Positions 1-5,978 are shown, counted from the stretch's first letter. The stretch: DNA of 58,420 nucleotides from Candidatus Omnitrophota bacterium (GCA_043813915.1 JBDRKO010000024.1:1-58420); one strand, 5' to 3'. Numbers and translations are program-made. The notes: generated by a model not told the origin, from the sequence alone.

Positions 1-305
1 TCCTGTCGATAGCGCCGCCCGATTTCAAGCGCGGCCTGAATATGGGCGATCTTGGCCCCGCCCAACCCCTTGAACTCTTTCCAGTCCCGGGCGTCAGTGT
101 GAGCCATGTTGCGGAATGTGCTGAATTTCTTTAAGATTTTGCGTGCGAGGTCGATTGCGCTGGTGCCCTGCGTACCGGTACGAAGAAGAATCGCCAGAAG
201 CTCGGAATTACTCAAAGCCCCTGCGCCCTTTTTGAGGAGTTTCTCTCTCGGCCTGTCATCTATCGGCCAAGACTTTATGCCTGATATTTTTCTTTCCTTC
301 ACCAT
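1..305 (-). CDS. radC: RadC-family (HhH + JAB) DNA repair protein, N-terminal part; gene continues past the left edge
   Basis: Absent from the ORF track because no stop lies in the window. Reverse complement of 305..3 reads MVKERKISGIKSWPIDDRPREKLLKKGAGALSNSELLAILLRTGTQGTSAIDLARKILKKFSTFRN...FKGLGGAKIAHIQAALEIGRRYRQ. This matches the conserved RadC N-terminus (RPREKL, ELLAILLRTG, GxAKAxxxxAAxExxRR). Confidence 0.8.
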   Translation of the reverse strand, partial: MVKERKISGIKSWPIDDRPREKLLKKGAGALSNSELLAILLRTGTQGTSAIDLARKILKKFSTFRNMAHTDARDWKEFKGLGGAKIAHIQAALEIGRRYRQ

Positions 306-337
306 TCTTCTCTTCTCTGTTCTTCACTTAAAATACT

Positions 338-601
338 GAGCCCATTGTGAGCCATTAATGAGCCAATTGAGCCATTTATGAGCCAACCGACCCTTTTGCC
401 CCATTACCGCATCTATGTCCCGTTTGTCCCCTTTGTGTCCCCTTAGGCTAATCGCGCACTAATCGCGCAATGTCCGATATGTCCGTTAAATGTCCGAAAT
501 CTCTGCTCGTCAAAAAGAGCCATGAATAGAGACATTTTTTAAATATTCGAGCCAAAATCTAATCGAGCCATAAATCGGGCCATTTTCAGCAAAATCGAGC
601 C
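338..601. repeat. Dense array of short direct words (GAGCCA x9 plus 2 variants; ATGTCC/TGTCCC x7; TAATCGCGCA x2) between radC and the DUF4062 gene
   Basis: GAGCC(A/C) starts at 338, 349, 360, 369 and 380 (spacing 11, 11, 9, 11), then at 517, 549, 565, 578 (GGGCCA) and 596. ATGTCC-type words lie at 415-495. CTAATCGCGCA is doubled at ~448-469. Confidence 0.85.
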
Positions 602-602
602 A

Positions 603-2072
603 CTAAGGTTTTTTGTACTTAACAGCCCTGCCCGATCCTTCCTGAACAATAAGGCTCTCAGCTAAGAGTTGCCGCAAGTCACGCTGTGCCGAACGAATAG
701 AAGTATTAAATCGTTGGGCATAATCCTTCCTACTAATAACTTCCCCCTTATTATAAATTAATTGCAACACTTCCAATTGTCGCTTATTCAAATGGGAGAG
801 ATCGGTCATTCTATTGGCTGGAATGCTTGGCGCAAGATCCAAAATCCTATCCCCGGGACCATAAAATTTAACAACAAAGAAATCCCCTTCCTCCGAGAAC
901 TCCGGAGCTGAAAGGCCATGCTCTTTCATAAGTTTCTTCATCTTTTCTATTCCAGTACCAAAGCGTTCCATATCCAAAGTCTCATGAAAGATACCACAGA
1001 TGGCCTTATTGCGTGTCGCATGAGTGCCTTCCAACTTCTTAATGTTTAGACCGGGCAAAAGCCCGCCGGGATTGCGAACCTCAACACGATCATCAAAAAC
1101 AGCTACCATAATTGGCGCGCCTTGACGGTTGTAGTTGCGATGAGCTATTGCATTAATGACCGCTTCACGAATAGCCTCGAAAGGGTATTCGGGAATATCT
1201 ACCCGTTTAAACTCGACGATCTTGTTCGCCAAGCGAGTGTTCCGCACGAAGAATGCCTGCACCTGAGCAAGCATTTTATAAATAGGCCCTTTGATCTCTT
1301 GCGAATCTATAAACTCTGAACGCGTTGTCCCTTTGAATCGGGCAATACGAATCTCATGGTTCGTGATGATGTCGGAAGGATTTTTACCGAAGAATAGAAT
1401 TCCTGTATTCGTAGGCCGTAGCCCGCCATCTTCTTTTTTAACAACTTTAAGGACGTTGGTCAGGATATCCTTAATTGATGTCTTCGGAACTTTAACATTA
1501 AGCTTGGTAGCGCGATTCTGCAGAAAATCTTTCACGCACTGCTCGTCGATTGCGTCATAGCCCACTTCACGAGGAATCGCCTCATCAAAAGGCCCTTTAC
1601 TAACTTCGCCTTTATCATCCAAGAATGAAATCAAACTATTGAGCACTTGAACCTTTAGATCGTCAACACTGCGGAATCTTTTGTAAATAAATACAGCTTT
1701 TATGGATTTAAAGAAGGCCTGCTCATCTTTATCCCGCTTTGAGTCATCTCCAGACGTTCCTTTCACAAAAACAAGAATTTCTCCGCGCGGGCATTCTTTT
1801 TGAAACTTCCTGAATTCTCGCTCTGTCGCCGAGAAACCGTCTTTGCCTTTATCTCCATAGTCCTTACCCAGAATCCCAAGATAAATATCACTGTCGCAAA
1901 CATGCTTCAAGTATGTTGCCGCTGGCGACTTACCCTTTGCGGGAAGATCCTCAAAAAGGAATACATCAAAGCACTGCCGCAAAGTCGAGTTGCCGTTGAT
2001 CAAATCCTTGATCGCGAACCTCTCATCACGAAGCTCTTTTTGATTAGCACTGACAAATATTTTATATTTCAT
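603..2072 (-). CDS. DUF4062 domain fused to a RecG-C-terminal-like HATPase_c_4 module and a C-terminal winged HTH; putative DNA-binding / conflict-system protein
   Basis: 489-aa ORF. The N-terminal ~110 aa fit the DUF4062 pattern (KIFVSANQKELRDER...VCDSDIYLGILGKDYGD). Residues ~300-400 carry the HATPase_c_4 signature (EAIREAVINAIAHRNY..VEVRNPGGL..ATRNKAI..ERFGTGIEKM). The tail looks like a wHTH (LNKRQLEVLQLIY..SIRSAQRDLRQL). The ATG at 2072 is 1 nt after the stop of the XRE gene. Confidence 0.7.
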   Translation of the reverse strand: MKYKIFVSANQKELRDERFAIKDLINGNSTLRQCFDVFLFEDLPAKGKSPAATYLKHVCDSDIYLGILGKDYGDKGKDGFSATEREFRKFQKECPRGEILVFVKGTSGDDSKRDKDEQAFFKSIKAVFIYKRFRSVDDLKVQVLNSLISFLDDKGEVSKGPFDEAIPREVGYDAIDEQCVKDFLQNRATKLNVKVPKTSIKDILTNVLKVVKKEDGGLRPTNTGILFFGKNPSDIITNHEIRIARFKGTTRSEFIDSQEIKGPIYKMLAQVQAFFVRNTRLANKIVEFKRVDIPEYPFEAIREAVINAIAHRNYNRQGAPIMVAVFDDRVEVRNPGGLLPGLNIKKLEGTHATRNKAICGIFHETLDMERFGTGIEKMKKLMKEHGLSAPEFSEEGDFFVVKFYGPGDRILDLAPSIPANRMTDLSHLNKRQLEVLQLIYNKGEVISRKDYAQRFNTSIRSAQRDLRQLLAESLIVQEGSGRAVKYKKP

Positions 2073-2073
2073 C

Positions 2074-2286
2074 TTACTTGACCTCTTTTGTGCTCTTAGC
2101 CGAAAATGTTATTTTCTTTTTGGTTAAATACTTCTCGACGTGATACTGCTGAATTTTGCTGGGAACGGTCTTGCCGTTAAACCAGCGGCTCACGGTCGAA
2201 AAAGCAACGCCCAGCTCTTTGGCTAAATCCTGCTGAGTAATCTTGTTTTCAAGACGGTACAGTTCTAATTTTTTTATCATATCCAT
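2074..2286 (-). CDS. XRE-family helix-turn-helix transcriptional regulator
   Basis: ORF track gives 2074..2340. HTH core is ITQQDLAKELGVAFSTVSRWFNGKTVP. I place the start at ATG 2286 (MDMIKKLELY) because AGGAG lies 8 nt upstream; the longer 2340 start cannot be excluded. The stop is 1 nt from the next gene's ATG. Confidence 0.8.
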   Translation of the reverse strand: MDMIKKLELYRLENKITQQDLAKELGVAFSTVSRWFNGKTVPSKIQQYHVEKYLTKKKITFSAKSTKEVK

Positions 2287-2411
2287 ATGCCTAGCTCCTG
2301 TGGTTAGCATAGTCATTTTCCCCTTTTGCGCATATTGCATCTTATAGCACAGAATTAATTAAAAGTCAATGTGAAACTACCGATAAAAAACCGTGAGGGT
2401 AACAAGACTGC

Positions 2412-2447
2412 CCTATGAAATAGGACAATTGTTCTATGGAATAGAAC
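2412..2447. promoter_or_regulatory. Two related palindromes (CCTATgaaATAGG and GTTCTATggaATAGAAC); candidate operator upstream of the XRE gene
   Basis: 2412-2424 and 2431-2447 share a CTAT-N3-ATAG core. They lie ~125-175 nt upstream of the preferred XRE start (2286), or 72-107 nt upstream of the 2340 alternative. Both are in the gap after ORF 2456..2728. Confidence 0.4.
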
Positions 2448-2455
2448 AGGCGGGA

Positions 2456-2728
2456 TTAAAGGACGGATTCTTGAAGCTTGCCGGTCGTTGCATCCACAAT
2501 CCGGAAATGGGTCTTGCCGGTGCGATCCTTCCACTGCTCCTCGATATTCAGACTCCAGTCCCCCAGTGGCATAACTTTCTGGATCTCCCGCAGGCGAAGT
2601 TTACCGGCCGGGACCGCGCCCAAAAGATCGCCCTCGGTTGAGATGTTTTCCACGTAAACTTCCTCGCCAGCCAGCCGGACGCTGATGTAGCGGGTTTTCT
2701 TAACAGCTTGCTCAATAATCTTTGCCAT
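2456..2728 (-). CDS. hypothetical protein (90 aa), first gene of the XRE/DUF4062 module
   Basis: Clean ORF with a strong SD (GGGAGG) 6-8 nt upstream of ATG 2728. No recognisable motif. The overlapping ORFs 2393..2641(+) and 2548..2832(-) lack comparable signals. Confidence 0.55.
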   Translation of the reverse strand: MAKIIEQAVKKTRYISVRLAGEEVYVENISTEGDLLGAVPAGKLRLREIQKVMPLGDWSLNIEEQWKDRTGKTHFRIVDATTGKLQESVL

Positions 2729-2924
2729 GCGCCTACCTCCCTTTTGGGGTCAAGTAGGCCATAGGGTTGAGCGGTTGGCAAGGGATTTATTGGGGTTACG
2801 AGCCTACCCCTCCCATATGAATAATATGCCATAACCTGCTTTAATATTGATAGTTACAGAGAATTTAGGAAGGCTTTTTTGTCATAAATAATCTACACTT
2901 TTTGTGACAAGATTTTTGGGGCCT

Positions 2925-3180
2925 AATGTTCAGTAATTAGTGAACATTACCTATCGAGTGAACATTAAATGTCCACCGGCCGGAAATGTCCACTATTTAC
3001 GAGACATTTCAATTTAGTGGACATTTGCATGTCCATCCATGTCCATCAAAACGGCCTTTTTTGACCTTCCCGGACACCCACAGGACACCCCTTAAATCGC
3101 CTGTTTTCCGACGCTGGGCGCTTGTTTTGGCCGGGTTGACATTGATGCCCAAACTGCCAATTGCGTGGACATGGACATCG
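2925..3180. repeat. Iteron-like word array (GTGAACATTA x2, AAATGTCCAC x2, GTGGACATTT, ATGTCCAT x2, GGACAT x2, CGGACACCC/GGACACCCC)
   Basis: Read directly from the sequence: 2949-2965 region (GTGAACATTA twice), 2966-2973 and 2983-2990 (AAATGTCC), 3019-3026 (GGACATTT), 3029-3044 (ATGTCCAT twice), 3070-3092 and 3165-3178. Confidence 0.8.
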
Positions 3181-3402
3181 ATTTTTTTGACCACTATCAC
3201 TGGCTCCTTGCGCCTCGCCCGACCCTCACCCAAGCCCCCTTCCAAGGACCCGTGGCACCTGCCAGCATAAAAAATCCCTGCGACCACGCCTATCGGCATA
3301 ACCATAGGGACTTGAGTTGCTAAAACGATGCTGATCCTTACAACGCCCCGACTACCGCCTCTGCCAAGCTTCTCATCGCATTACTATAATCCTGCCACCG
3401 GC

Positions 3403-3470
3403 CACCCGAAGGTTTTTAAAAAGACCTTCATAGAATAACCTCCGATGGTCTTTTTAAAAACCTACGGGTG
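3403..3470. repeat. 24-bp inverted repeat (23/24) with 20-nt loop
   Basis: 3403-3426 CACCCGAAGGTTTTTAAAAAGACC pairs with 3447-3470 GGTCTTTTTAAAAACCTACGGGTG. Confidence 0.85.
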
Positions 3471-3475
3471 CCACA

Positions 3476-3499
3476 TTCCACGCACGGTAGTGTGGGGAA
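3476..3499. repeat. Degenerate copy of the TTCCCCACAC-N4-GTGTGGGGAA hairpin family
   Basis: TTCCACGCACggtaGTGTGGGGAA. Compare 5991-6014 and 27237-27258. Confidence 0.7.
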
Positions 3500-3595
3500 T
3501 TCTCGTTTATGCTTAGTCATATGTTTTCTCATTTTATTCGATCGTGCCGCCCAAATGTCCTGATATATATCTTTTTACTAACGATGCTTTATCCT

Positions 3596-5922: not shown

Positions 5923-5978
5923 CCATCGGACACCCAAATGTCCTTATATATACACATGGACATTTGGGTGTCCGATGG
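5923..5978. repeat. Perfect 21-bp inverted repeat with a 14-nt AT-rich loop
   Basis: 5923-5943 CCATCGGACACCCAAATGTCC; loop TTATATATACACAT; 5958-5978 GGACATTTGGGTGTCCGATGG, the exact reverse complement. Confidence 0.9.

Follow-up and report, generated by a model that had tools for sequence, protein, structure and literature searches.

A gene near one end of a 58,420-nt stretch of DNA from Candidatus Omnitrophota bacterium (GCA_043813915.1, JBDRKO010000024.1:1-58420), referred to here as the window and used for all coordinates, raises two linked questions: what a protein that joins a DUF4062 (NIR) head, a GHKL-type ATPase domain and a C-terminal winged helix-turn-helix (wHTH) domain might do, and why its coding sequence is followed, from the first base past the stop codon, by a row of short direct repeats. 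This gene (the big gene) encodes a protein of 489 amino acids (aa), and it was compared with related loci, designated by L-numbers (L003, L005, L021, etc.), in a sequence set drawn from uncultured organisms. The row of repeats proves to be a regular feature of the family, with a recurring geometry and a motif that changes with the class of wHTH, and the 489-aa protein is probably a single-chain, abortive-infection-type NADase that uses its wHTH to dock on the cis array behind its own gene. The parts on which this reading rests are listed below, with the kind of evidence for each.

603..2072, minus strand: the big gene, encoding the 489-aa NIR(DUF4062)-middle-GHKL-wHTH protein (open reading frame, Pfam, homologues, AlphaFold2 model)
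606..797, minus strand: hypervariable C-terminal wHTH (aa 426-489), the putative specificity determinant (AlphaFold2 helices and wing; low pairwise identity)
547..602, minus strand: putative cognate cis array of four direct TGGCYCGA copies (motif search; wHTH-class match)
503..798, minus strand: swappable wHTH-plus-array cassette, the one stretch of the module left unaligned with L005 (blastn)
1608..2072, minus strand: predicted NIR/DUF4062 TIR-like NADase domain, aa 1-155 (PF13271, 10wc_A profile match, Foldseek)
1203..1595, minus strand: middle alpha/beta domain, aa ~160-290 (pLDDT 75-90; no Pfam family)
858..1190, minus strand: GHKL (Bergerat-fold) ATPase domain, aa ~295-405 (PF13749 over 318-403)

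The wHTH is the variable end of an otherwise well-conserved protein. Its presence, proposed in an earlier note on this DNA, agrees with a weak Pfam match (HTH_11, aa 431-473) and with the AlphaFold2 (AF2) model, which places helices at 430-441, 448-454 and 459-471 together with a beta wing (pLDDT 79-93). Family-wide mean pairwise identity is 0.47 for the wHTH versus 0.69-0.80 for the other domains. A clear example is seen in L005, a sister locus from an Omnitrophota metagenome-assembled genome (MAG) that is otherwise 93% identical to the module: blastn aligned 1-502 and 799-3313 and left 503-798 unaligned, and this gap corresponds to the wHTH plus ~100 bp past the stop codon. The two proteins differ at 8 positions in aa 1-408 (98% identical), whereas the differences cluster at aa 409-489, where 49 of the 64 wHTH residues are changed (23% identical). 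The repeat motif differs too, as L005 possesses AAATGTCYCTAAAA repeats where the window has its array.

The array of the window consists of TGGCYCGA copies at 595-602, 575-582, 563-570 and 547-554, with spacings of 20, 12 and 16 bp, and the first copy starts at the base directly past the stop codon. Four of the five TGGCYCGA copies in the 58-kb window belong to this array, and none lies upstream of the operon. The same motif accompanies the same wHTH class in other contexts at L004, L045 and L047. The earlier note had described iteron-like arrays around the module; the arrays are real, but the post-stop array matches the protein's own wHTH and is not a mere part of the surroundings.

Similar arrays were found in nearly the whole family. 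Of 74 non-redundant loci, 73 have a ~10-bp motif repeated directly at least three times past the big gene, with arrays holding 3-7 copies. When the best 8-mer within 160 bp past the stop codon was counted, one mismatch allowed, the mean number of copies was 4.9, as compared to 2.8 in shuffled sequences, 2.4 in coding sequence and 2.4 in 235 windows taken past other open reading frames (ORFs), and five or more copies were present in 65% of the windows past the big gene versus 0.9% of those past other ORFs (Mann-Whitney p≈1e-37). Moreover, the geometry is shared: the first copy lies at most 10 bp from the stop codon in 59/74 loci, the copies are directly oriented, and in each wHTH class most of them are spaced by 20 or 11-12 bp.

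The motif follows the wHTH and neither the rest of the protein nor the gene neighbourhood. Where two wHTHs are at least 0.6 identical, 54-89% of locus pairs share a motif (three or more copies), compared with 0-4% below that identity, and motif sharing is nearly independent of identity elsewhere in the protein (rho 0.07). In 30 locus pairs with bodies at least 85% identical, both the wHTH and the motif differ; conversely, in seven pairs the bodies have diverged, the wHTHs are similar and the motif is the same. In a permutation test, 138 of 212 pairs were observed, whereas none of 2000 permutations gave more than 32. The motifs of related wHTHs resemble each other as well, as do TGGCGCATAA, TGATGCATAA and TGCAGCATAA. 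Finally, TGTCAYGAA repeats were predicted past the stop codon of P0246, a Schlafen-headed relative with a class-3-like wHTH, and its locus indeed revealed three copies of AAATGTCATGAAA, spaced 20 and 12 bp apart, directly past the stop codon. P0246 was found through a homology search and is the one locus of a Schlafen-headed near relative to be recovered, none having been present in the viral contigs, plasmids or compared loci. The gene and its array move as one unit, and the wHTH-plus-array segment is exchanged between near-identical genes. The covariation suggests that the wHTH is a sequence-specific DNA-binding domain and that the array supplies its putative cognate sites.

A few further observations concern the arrays. 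The array patterns of class 3 and class 5 gave no match in 2.9 million viral contigs, in which only distant relatives of the protein occur. Four TAATCTCC copies in Runella were considered as a cognate array and rejected, as they adjoin a rep gene and are probably plasmid iterons. Two archaeal copies (Methanobacteriota) look damaged, one by a frame change near aa 370 (L019, 10001-11462) and the other by loss of ~aa 64-168 (L020, 10001-11145); both keep clean post-stop arrays of five to six copies (TGATGCATAA and TGCAGCATAAA).

What, then, would the wHTH bring to the DNA? The head of the protein was called as DUF4062 in the earlier note, and PF13271 indeed covers aa 4-88 with 61.1 bits against a gathering score of 24.7; it is also present in all of the 120 best-listed homologues (of at least 910 clusters). 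The conflict-associated role named there for the domain is backed by three preprints of 2026, which show that DUF4062, renamed NIR, is an NADase of TIR-like type that protects against phage by depleting NAD+ (10.64898/2026.05.01.722283; 10.64898/2026.09.04.749371; 10.64898/2026.06.25.731849). A single Glu is essential for both defence and NAD+ depletion in KpSwz (10.64898/2026.05.01.722283), as well as in PsAvs2, Vulcan and Vesta (10.64898/2026.09.04.749371), the positions being E97 in KpSwz, E108 in PsAvs2, E98 in Vulcan and E103 in VstA. The profile of the present family matches the solved KpSwz DUF4062 chain, 10wc_A, over aa 1-147 (E=2.2e-7), and E84, which lies in a SATEREF motif (codon 1821-1823) and is invariant among 29 homologues, aligns with E82 of that chain. 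The latter would be E97 of full-length KpSwz if the crystallised construct is the 16-C one. The AF2 model is confident across most of aa 1-150 (pLDDT 84-93), and Foldseek returned TIR domains for it, namely TIR-STING 9lmq, L7 TIR 7vu8 and RRS1 TIR 4c6s (E=5e-4 to 3e-3). E84 is the candidate catalytic residue, as judged by alignment, and the N-terminal domain a predicted TIR-like NAD+ hydrolase.

A split version of the architecture exists on plasmid pLPP of Legionella pneumophila str. Paris (L119, NC_006365.1 130347-131847), where adjacent genes encode a 173-aa DUF4062 protein and a 323-aa GHKL "ATP-binding protein" beside a site-specific integrase. This plasmid is conjugative, the split arrangement is conserved on many Legionella plasmids, and it provides a cultivable entry point.

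The centre of the protein carries the HATPase_c_4 domain named in the earlier note: PF13749 matches aa 318-403 with 82.7 bits against a gathering score of 26. Its E-x3-N motif is formed by E303 (codon 1164-1166) and N307 (codon 1152-1154), and E303, N307, H311 and G374 are invariant across 84 diverse relatives. The spacing of E303 and N307 equals that of E314 and N318 in RzAgo, the protein in which PF13749 binds ATP and Mg via these two residues and in which ATP binding leads to the tetramerisation that assembles the effector (10.64898/2026.05.29.728809). Among solved structures, 3LMM (DIP2311; E=1.6e-12) is the best match to aa 283-426 together with the wHTH, and it is also the top Foldseek match. 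PF13749 is a true GHKL ATPase, and ATP binding by the 489-aa protein is predicted.

This ATPase belongs to a module that is found beneath several different heads. An exhaustive search with aa 155-489 gave ~13,000 representative relatives, mostly of 450-490 aa, with the match starting at ~residue 140-160; the middle domain aligns to residues ~140-290 in these proteins and is common to Schlafen-GHKL relatives. HATPase_c_4 was present in all 84 of the relatives that were scanned, and the head domain was SLFN_AlbA_2 in 66, DUF4062 in 15 and a cytidine deaminase in two. The earlier note had proposed that DUF4062 takes the position of a Schlafen/AlbA_2 head, and these counts bear that out; the middle-GHKL-wHTH portion is therefore a chassis that carries interchangeable heads, two of which (NIR and Schlafen) are demonstrated immune effectors. 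The same note called the architecture unusual, and here it was mistaken, as the family comprises at least 910 clusters at 90% identity, with a length fixed at ~490 aa and the best 120 being 63-89% identical. The deaminase heads comprise dCMP_cyt_deam_1, MafB19-deam and Inv-AAD domains, i.e., the cytidine/dCMP-deaminase type. Within the 489-aa protein itself, AlbA_2 gave no Pfam match at E<1, and the idea that the middle domain is a cryptic AlbA_2 was discarded for this reason and because the AlbA_2 of relatives sits N-terminal to the homologous middle domain. Likewise, the PADLOC pAgo/Aga models match aa 158-394 only, and an Argonaute system was rejected on these grounds; the matches arise because fusions of Schlafen (SLFN), GHKL and prokaryotic Argonaute (pAgo) exist.

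The genomic surroundings of the big gene are those of a mobile defence gene. A public contig with the identical protein (L021) extends past the left end of the window, and the order beyond the big gene is radC (235 aa), hsdR, hsdM, hsdS, an unnamed gene, a SIR2_2 gene and a 1070-aa ORF. The three hsd genes score as REase_I, MTase_I and Specificity_I in PADLOC, and the 303-aa SIR2_2 protein matches the N-terminal 283 of the 1227 positions of Dsr1 (E=9e-75; L021 17486-19962). The >1000-aa ORF that comes after it has no database match, and together the two look like a Dsr1-type system split into two genes. The earlier suggestion of a horizontally acquired island is upheld by this run of radC, type I restriction-modification (R-M) genes and Dsr1-like SIR2 gene, and by the homology to L005, which extends from the start of the window to ~3407; the 251-aa gene and everything beyond that point belong to a different host background.

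Members of the family occur in Omnitrophota, Elusimicrobiota, Nitrospirota, Planctomycetia, Actinobacteria, Clostridia and archaea, with 60-89% identity across phyla, and this wide range points to horizontal spread. Some big genes directly follow hsdR inside hsdR-X-hsdS-(OLD)-hsdM operons, whereas others follow an excisionase-integrase pair, lie beside IS110, IS21, AbiEii or RhuM, or are solitary. Type I R-M genes lie within 2.5 kb of the big gene in at least 14 of the 74 loci, a count that comes from a small probe set with short flanks. Placement beside known defence systems or on mobile elements is thus repeated, in keeping with residence in defence islands. In five non-redundant loci, a 368-aa protein with no Pfam match is encoded directly downstream of the big gene (L003/L018 9629-10735 and L012 11699-12784, also L058, L093 and L097; L003 and L012 share 63% identity), perhaps as an accessory to the big protein in a single sub-lineage.

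A mechanism can be proposed from these parts. The NIR/DUF4062 domain would act as the effector, hydrolysing NAD+ via E84, and the middle domain and GHKL ATPase (E303/N307) would act as the switch, binding ATP and controlling oligomerisation, much as the same module serves the Schlafen nuclease in SLFN-pAgo. Specificity would come from the wHTH, which would recognise the four TGGCYCGA direct repeats at 547-602. Newly made protein would dock side by side on the cis array and form a resting or organised oligomer, until an infection-linked cue shifted its state, for instance DNA that competes or has been altered, a damaged host chromosome or a rearrangement that depends on ATP; the NIR domains would then assemble as an active NADase and deplete NAD+. 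A bolder version holds that the array is a functional DNA part of the immune protein, a cis "docking station" that restrains the NADase (or, in relatives, the Schlafen nuclease) and lets it fire once this contact breaks or changes, be it through degradation of the host chromosome by phage nucleases, through titration of the protein or upon ATP-dependent rearrangement. We regard this version as rather unlikely.

Several points weigh against the proposal of an array-docked NADase. NADase activity, ATP binding and DNA binding are predictions drawn from homology and covariation, and the AF2 model of the 489-aa protein (mean pLDDT 73.5) is poor in the GHKL domain (pLDDT 33-70). Because the wHTH and the array adjoin, some of their covariation must be co-inheritance, and although motif cores are 0.88-0.95 identical between loci versus 0.47-0.65 for the spacers, the core value is inflated since cores were picked by matching. 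Six distant plasmid-borne AlbA_2 relatives lack a clear array, so the feature is limited to a subfamily. Some copies of the big gene reside among housekeeping or two-component genes, and PADLOC 2023 holds no model for the 489-aa protein as a system. Finally, oligomerisation usually activates TIR-like enzymes, and a resting, array-bound oligomer would require an inhibitory geometry that is pure conjecture.

Alternative explanations turn in part on the second gene of the operon and on the remaining features of the island, which are as follows.

2074..2286 (ORF up to 2340), minus strand: XRE/HTH_3 regulator gene, 70 aa from MDMIKK (HTH_3 E=4e-11)
2341..2369, minus strand: promoter-like TTGACT-17 nt-TATAAG 5' of the XRE gene (by eye)
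2456..2728, minus strand: orf90, a 90-aa gene (ORF; 93 homologue clusters; no Pfam family)
1..305, minus strand: N-terminal 101 codons of radC (translation; the gene continues off the window)
337..503, minus strand: stacked short tandem arrays in the spacer ahead of radC (repeat scan)
3403..3470, no strand assigned: 27-nt inverted repeat at the island/host junction (inverted-repeat scan; L005 homology ends at 3407)

The three ORFs of the locus were all recovered on the minus strand where the earlier note had placed them, that of the XRE gene as 88 aa at 2074-2340, with a start at MDMIKK preferred on the basis of homologues and the public gene call. The 1-nt junction is likewise correct, the XRE stop codon occupying 2074-2076 and the ATG of the big gene 2070-2072, and it recurs in L005, L007 and L024-26. 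Of the 65 loci whose flanks were long enough, 13 have an XRE homologue upstream of the big gene; the 1-nt junction is then always present, and radC and type I R-M genes are often nearby. In L034 (6794-12273), an XRE gene 77% identical in DNA lies 5 nt ahead of a gene for an 1867-aa protein of the DUF4011 helicase-nuclease type (DUF4011, AAA_11, AAA_12, MTES_1575 and DUF3320 domains), so that one type of small regulator accompanies unlike large cargo genes from island to island. The promoter-like sequence is identical in L005. Consensus promoter and terminator scans of the window gave no more matches than shuffled sequence, and the scanner omits the promoter-like sequence because its second hexamer ends in G. 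A palindrome, GGTAATGTTCACTAATTACTGAACATTAG, lies at 2923-2951 and also ~110 bp upstream of the XRE gene in L024, and several AAATGTCCAC copies in both orientations lie beside it (2920-3060); both are candidate XRE operators. On a Parabacteroides distasonis plasmid (L121, 798-2568), a gap of 1 nt likewise separates the end of a gene for an HTH regulator from an AlbA_2-GHKL-HTH gene, which is followed by a SNF2 gene.

The earlier note read this layout as typical of toxin-antitoxin (TA) and abortive-infection (Abi) modules, in which the XRE protein would be an antitoxin or repressor that neutralises the DUF4062 protein, the 1-nt coupling serving to balance stoichiometry. The conserved junction agrees with this, as do the higher conservation of the XRE protein (83-100% identical versus 68-89% for the big protein), the similarly coupled HTH gene of the AlbA_2-headed Parabacteroides relative, and weak matches to the HipB, HigA and MqsA antitoxin models. 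The last of these, however, fall far under the curated cut-offs, and the obligate co-occurrence of a type II TA pair was not found: elsewhere the big gene has hsdR or an integrase ahead of it or is solitary, and the close XRE copy in L034 has an unrelated cargo. A facultative regulator with other cargo does not fit an obligate antitoxin, and the TA reading is very unlikely; the XRE protein instead fits an accessory transcriptional regulator of the island cargo or operon. Could the big protein itself be an ordinary transcription factor, one that regulates its neighbours or itself via the repeats, with DUF4062 and GHKL domains sensing a ligand or NAD and no role in immunity? A C-terminal wHTH with sequence-matched sites is what such a protein would have, its database name is "predicted HTH transcriptional regulator", the non-defence neighbourhoods of some copies would suit it, and an array between the gene and radC-hsdRMS could be a read-through roadblock or an operator. 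Yet the sites track the 3' end of the gene whatever follows (hsdS, radC, an MmeI fragment, two-component genes or a 109-aa ORF), and the operon of the window has no array copies upstream of it. The invariant catalytic Glu of a proven NADase family, the nuclease or deaminase heads on the module of relatives, and the high identity across phyla in R-M operons, integrase elements and a defence island all speak against this account too, and we judge it unlikely.

The regular spacing of the direct repeats also recalls iterons or a centromere-like site, and many copies of the gene are cargo of plasmids and of regions rich in integrases and insertion sequences, such that the protein could be a partition, replication-control or post-segregational-killing factor; indeed, a toxin freed upon loss of its DNA anchor would be an addiction module. 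There is but a slim chance that mobile-element maintenance explains the locus, as no Rep or Par genes travel with it, the minimal conserved unit is the gene plus its array, most copies are chromosomal and sit in R-M operons or islands, and the two array classes that were tested are absent from the viral contigs. Lastly, the post-stop repeats might be functionless hitch-hikers, swapped along with the 3' end of the gene, while the wHTH recognises, for example, a phage protein. Adjacency guarantees covariation after a cassette exchange, and the AUX domain of KpSwz, which has an HTH/winged fold, binds the phage portal and not DNA. Against this stands the fact that each wHTH class has its own motif and nevertheless the same architecture, with a start at the stop codon, direct copies and 20/12-bp steps. 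Spacers drift but cores do not, members of one class differ in copy number, related wHTHs have related motifs, and arrays of five copies are almost absent past other stop codons. Hitch-hiking of a functionless array is accordingly the most improbable of these accounts, and a DNA-docked NADase remains the preferred reading.

The third gene of the locus, orf90, had been counted as part of a three-gene module with the big gene. It is a real gene, as shown by 92% aa identity in a Clostridia MAG with mostly synonymous DNA changes, but it is not a partner of the big gene, near which it was found in two sampled loci only, and it also occurs beside other cargo. Its product and the homologues, of 88-90 aa, form an orphan family (93 clusters, 78-92% identical across phyla) that has no entry in Pfam, PADLOC or NCBIfam, and its AF2 model (pLDDT 86, bb-a-bbb) gave no meaningful structural match in the PDB or among viral structures. 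Its backbones carry a serine recombinase and an NrS1-like primase-polymerase, and it lies upstream of an HTH gene and then of varying defence-type cargo; copies are present at L018 70-339, L034 6001-6273 and L036 6001-6300. It travels as part of a single block of ~380 bp (2407-2788), which also holds its Shine-Dalgarno sequence and, downstream, two CTAT-N3-ATAG hairpins. Rather than being linked to the big gene, orf90 belongs to the framework of a mobile element.

On the other side of the big gene, the minus strand from 305 to 1 translates to the N-terminus of RadC, and the radC neighbour named in the earlier note is thereby confirmed. The spacer ahead of radC holds TGGCTCA (x5), GGGGACA (x3), CGCGATTAG (x2) and CGGACAT (x3), and these arrays are ~93% conserved in L005 despite its different wHTH and are therefore not matched to the wHTH of this protein. 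Past cassette swaps may have left them behind, or another protein, for example XRE, may use them as sites. Downstream in L009, L013 and L007, there are similar secondary arrays that belong to "foreign" classes. Four of the six TGAGCCA copies in the window lie within 348-385, and this local clustering alone stands out, as window-wide over-representation was dismissed (6 copies versus 4.8 expected, not significant). AATGTCC, in contrast, is over-represented in the window (17 copies versus 7.3±2.7 expected), with a further pair at 5937-5964, and is another candidate XRE operator.

Upstream, the ~870 bp of non-coding DNA reported earlier was confirmed, in that 2729-3595 holds unsupported ORFs only. 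The GC-rich flanks that had been noted by eye are real for 1-300, 2401-2850 and 3001-3450 (52-54% versus ~42% around them) but not for 2701-3000 (41%). The end of the L005 homology at ~3407 coincides with the 27-nt inverted repeat at 3403-3470. A GC-rich 70-nt element at 3338-3407, which adjoins this repeat in the window, is conserved in L005 (8062-8131), where it is cut off from the remainder of the island by a ~600-bp insert that contains a DsrE-like and a DUF202-like small ORF. This 70-nt element may mark a junction or serve for attachment; the window gave no matches in Rfam and tRNA scans, and for this reason no RNA gene or tRNA attachment site is named at the junction.

The broader significance of the family is that it links two fields, the NIR NADases and the Schlafen-GHKL proteins, each of which was shown in 2026 to have a role in immunity, through a GHKL-wHTH chassis that accepts a NADase, a tRNA nuclease or a deaminase as its head. 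The array offers a handle on the regulation of free-standing SLFN-GHKL-HTH proteins. Should it control activity, it would represent a new way to restrain a toxic immune effector, by a DNA site as opposed to a protein or RNA antitoxin, and wHTH-plus-array exchange would, if true, be a new way to diversify specificity. In that case, the principle could reach a sizeable share of the tens of thousands of Schlafen-GHKL-HTH proteins. The annotation of such proteins, which are currently named "ATP-binding protein", "RecG" or "HTH regulator", could also be improved.

Among known systems, Swarozyc (KpSwz; Osinski et al., bioRxiv 10.64898/2026.05.01.722283; PDB 10wc, 11cq, 11cv) is close at the N-terminus, where it has a homologous DUF4062 NADase with the catalytic Glu at the same position. 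Both are single-gene systems in defence islands that end in a helix-turn-helix-type specificity domain; KpSwz, however, is ~326 aa long and combines DUF4062 with a portal-binding AUX domain, with neither a GHKL ATPase nor a middle domain. The 489-aa protein is not of the KpSwz type, as only aa 1-147 match and the other 340 aa are middle domain, GHKL and wHTH, and the available passages of the KpSwz paper make no mention of a cis DNA array. The same effector domain is joined to a variable sensing part in PsAvs2, Vulcan and Vesta (Le Mouellic et al., 10.64898/2026.09.04.749371) and in Evangelion (10.64898/2026.06.25.731849). Defence by these NIR systems depends on the catalytic Glu and proceeds via NAD+ depletion, and their genes lie near defence genes more often than expected; the NIR domain is joined there to STAND-TPR, HEAT repeats, an alkaline phosphatase or a short AUX, unlike the GHKL-wHTH found here. 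Evangelion is set apart by its description, a short AUX as against a 489-aa GHKL-wHTH fusion. In the texts of the three DUF4062/NIR preprints, HATPase_c_4, GHKL, Schlafen and RecG-type modules are not mentioned; the available DUF4062 and Schlafen texts mention no NIR-GHKL-wHTH fusion, and a class-matched post-stop array is likewise absent from the accessible portions of the DUF4062/NIR and Schlafen literature.

From the other end, the protein resembles "Schlatpase", i.e., SLFN_AlbA_2 plus GHKL, often with a C-terminal HTH, which was described together with the SLFN-pAgo protein RzAgo (Kuzmenko et al., 10.64898/2026.05.29.728809) and equals the "pSlfn-HisKinase-HTH" group of PMC13056530. That preprint counted 60,692 SLFN-GHKL proteins, most of them small and many with a C-terminal HTH. 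The middle, GHKL and wHTH domains are homologous, being 25-49% identical across aa 155-489, both proteins keep the E-x3-N residues of the ATP site, Schlatpase genes likewise occur inside type I R-M operons, and the Schlafen-headed P0246 possesses the same type of array. The head differs, being a NADase and not a Schlafen tRNA nuclease, and the 489-aa protein lacks the defining SLFN half as well as an Argonaute. DIP2311 of Corynebacterium diphtheriae (PDB 3LMM, structural genomics) aligns over ~440 columns in Foldseek, with an identity of only ~16% and no DUF4062 head. Finally, SPARTA, Thoeris and DSR, which employ TIR or SIR2 NADases that oligomerisation activates, share the overall logic of a sensor-controlled assembly of an NAD+-depleting effector that results in abortive infection; in the present family, by comparison, the effector is an NIR domain that clusters apart from TIR, the switch is a GHKL ATPase, and the gene is linked to an array of DNA sites. 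What is new relative to all of these is the large family of NIR-GHKL-wHTH fusions, the interchange of heads on a common chassis and, most of all, a post-stop array that matches the wHTH class and is exchanged with it as a cassette.

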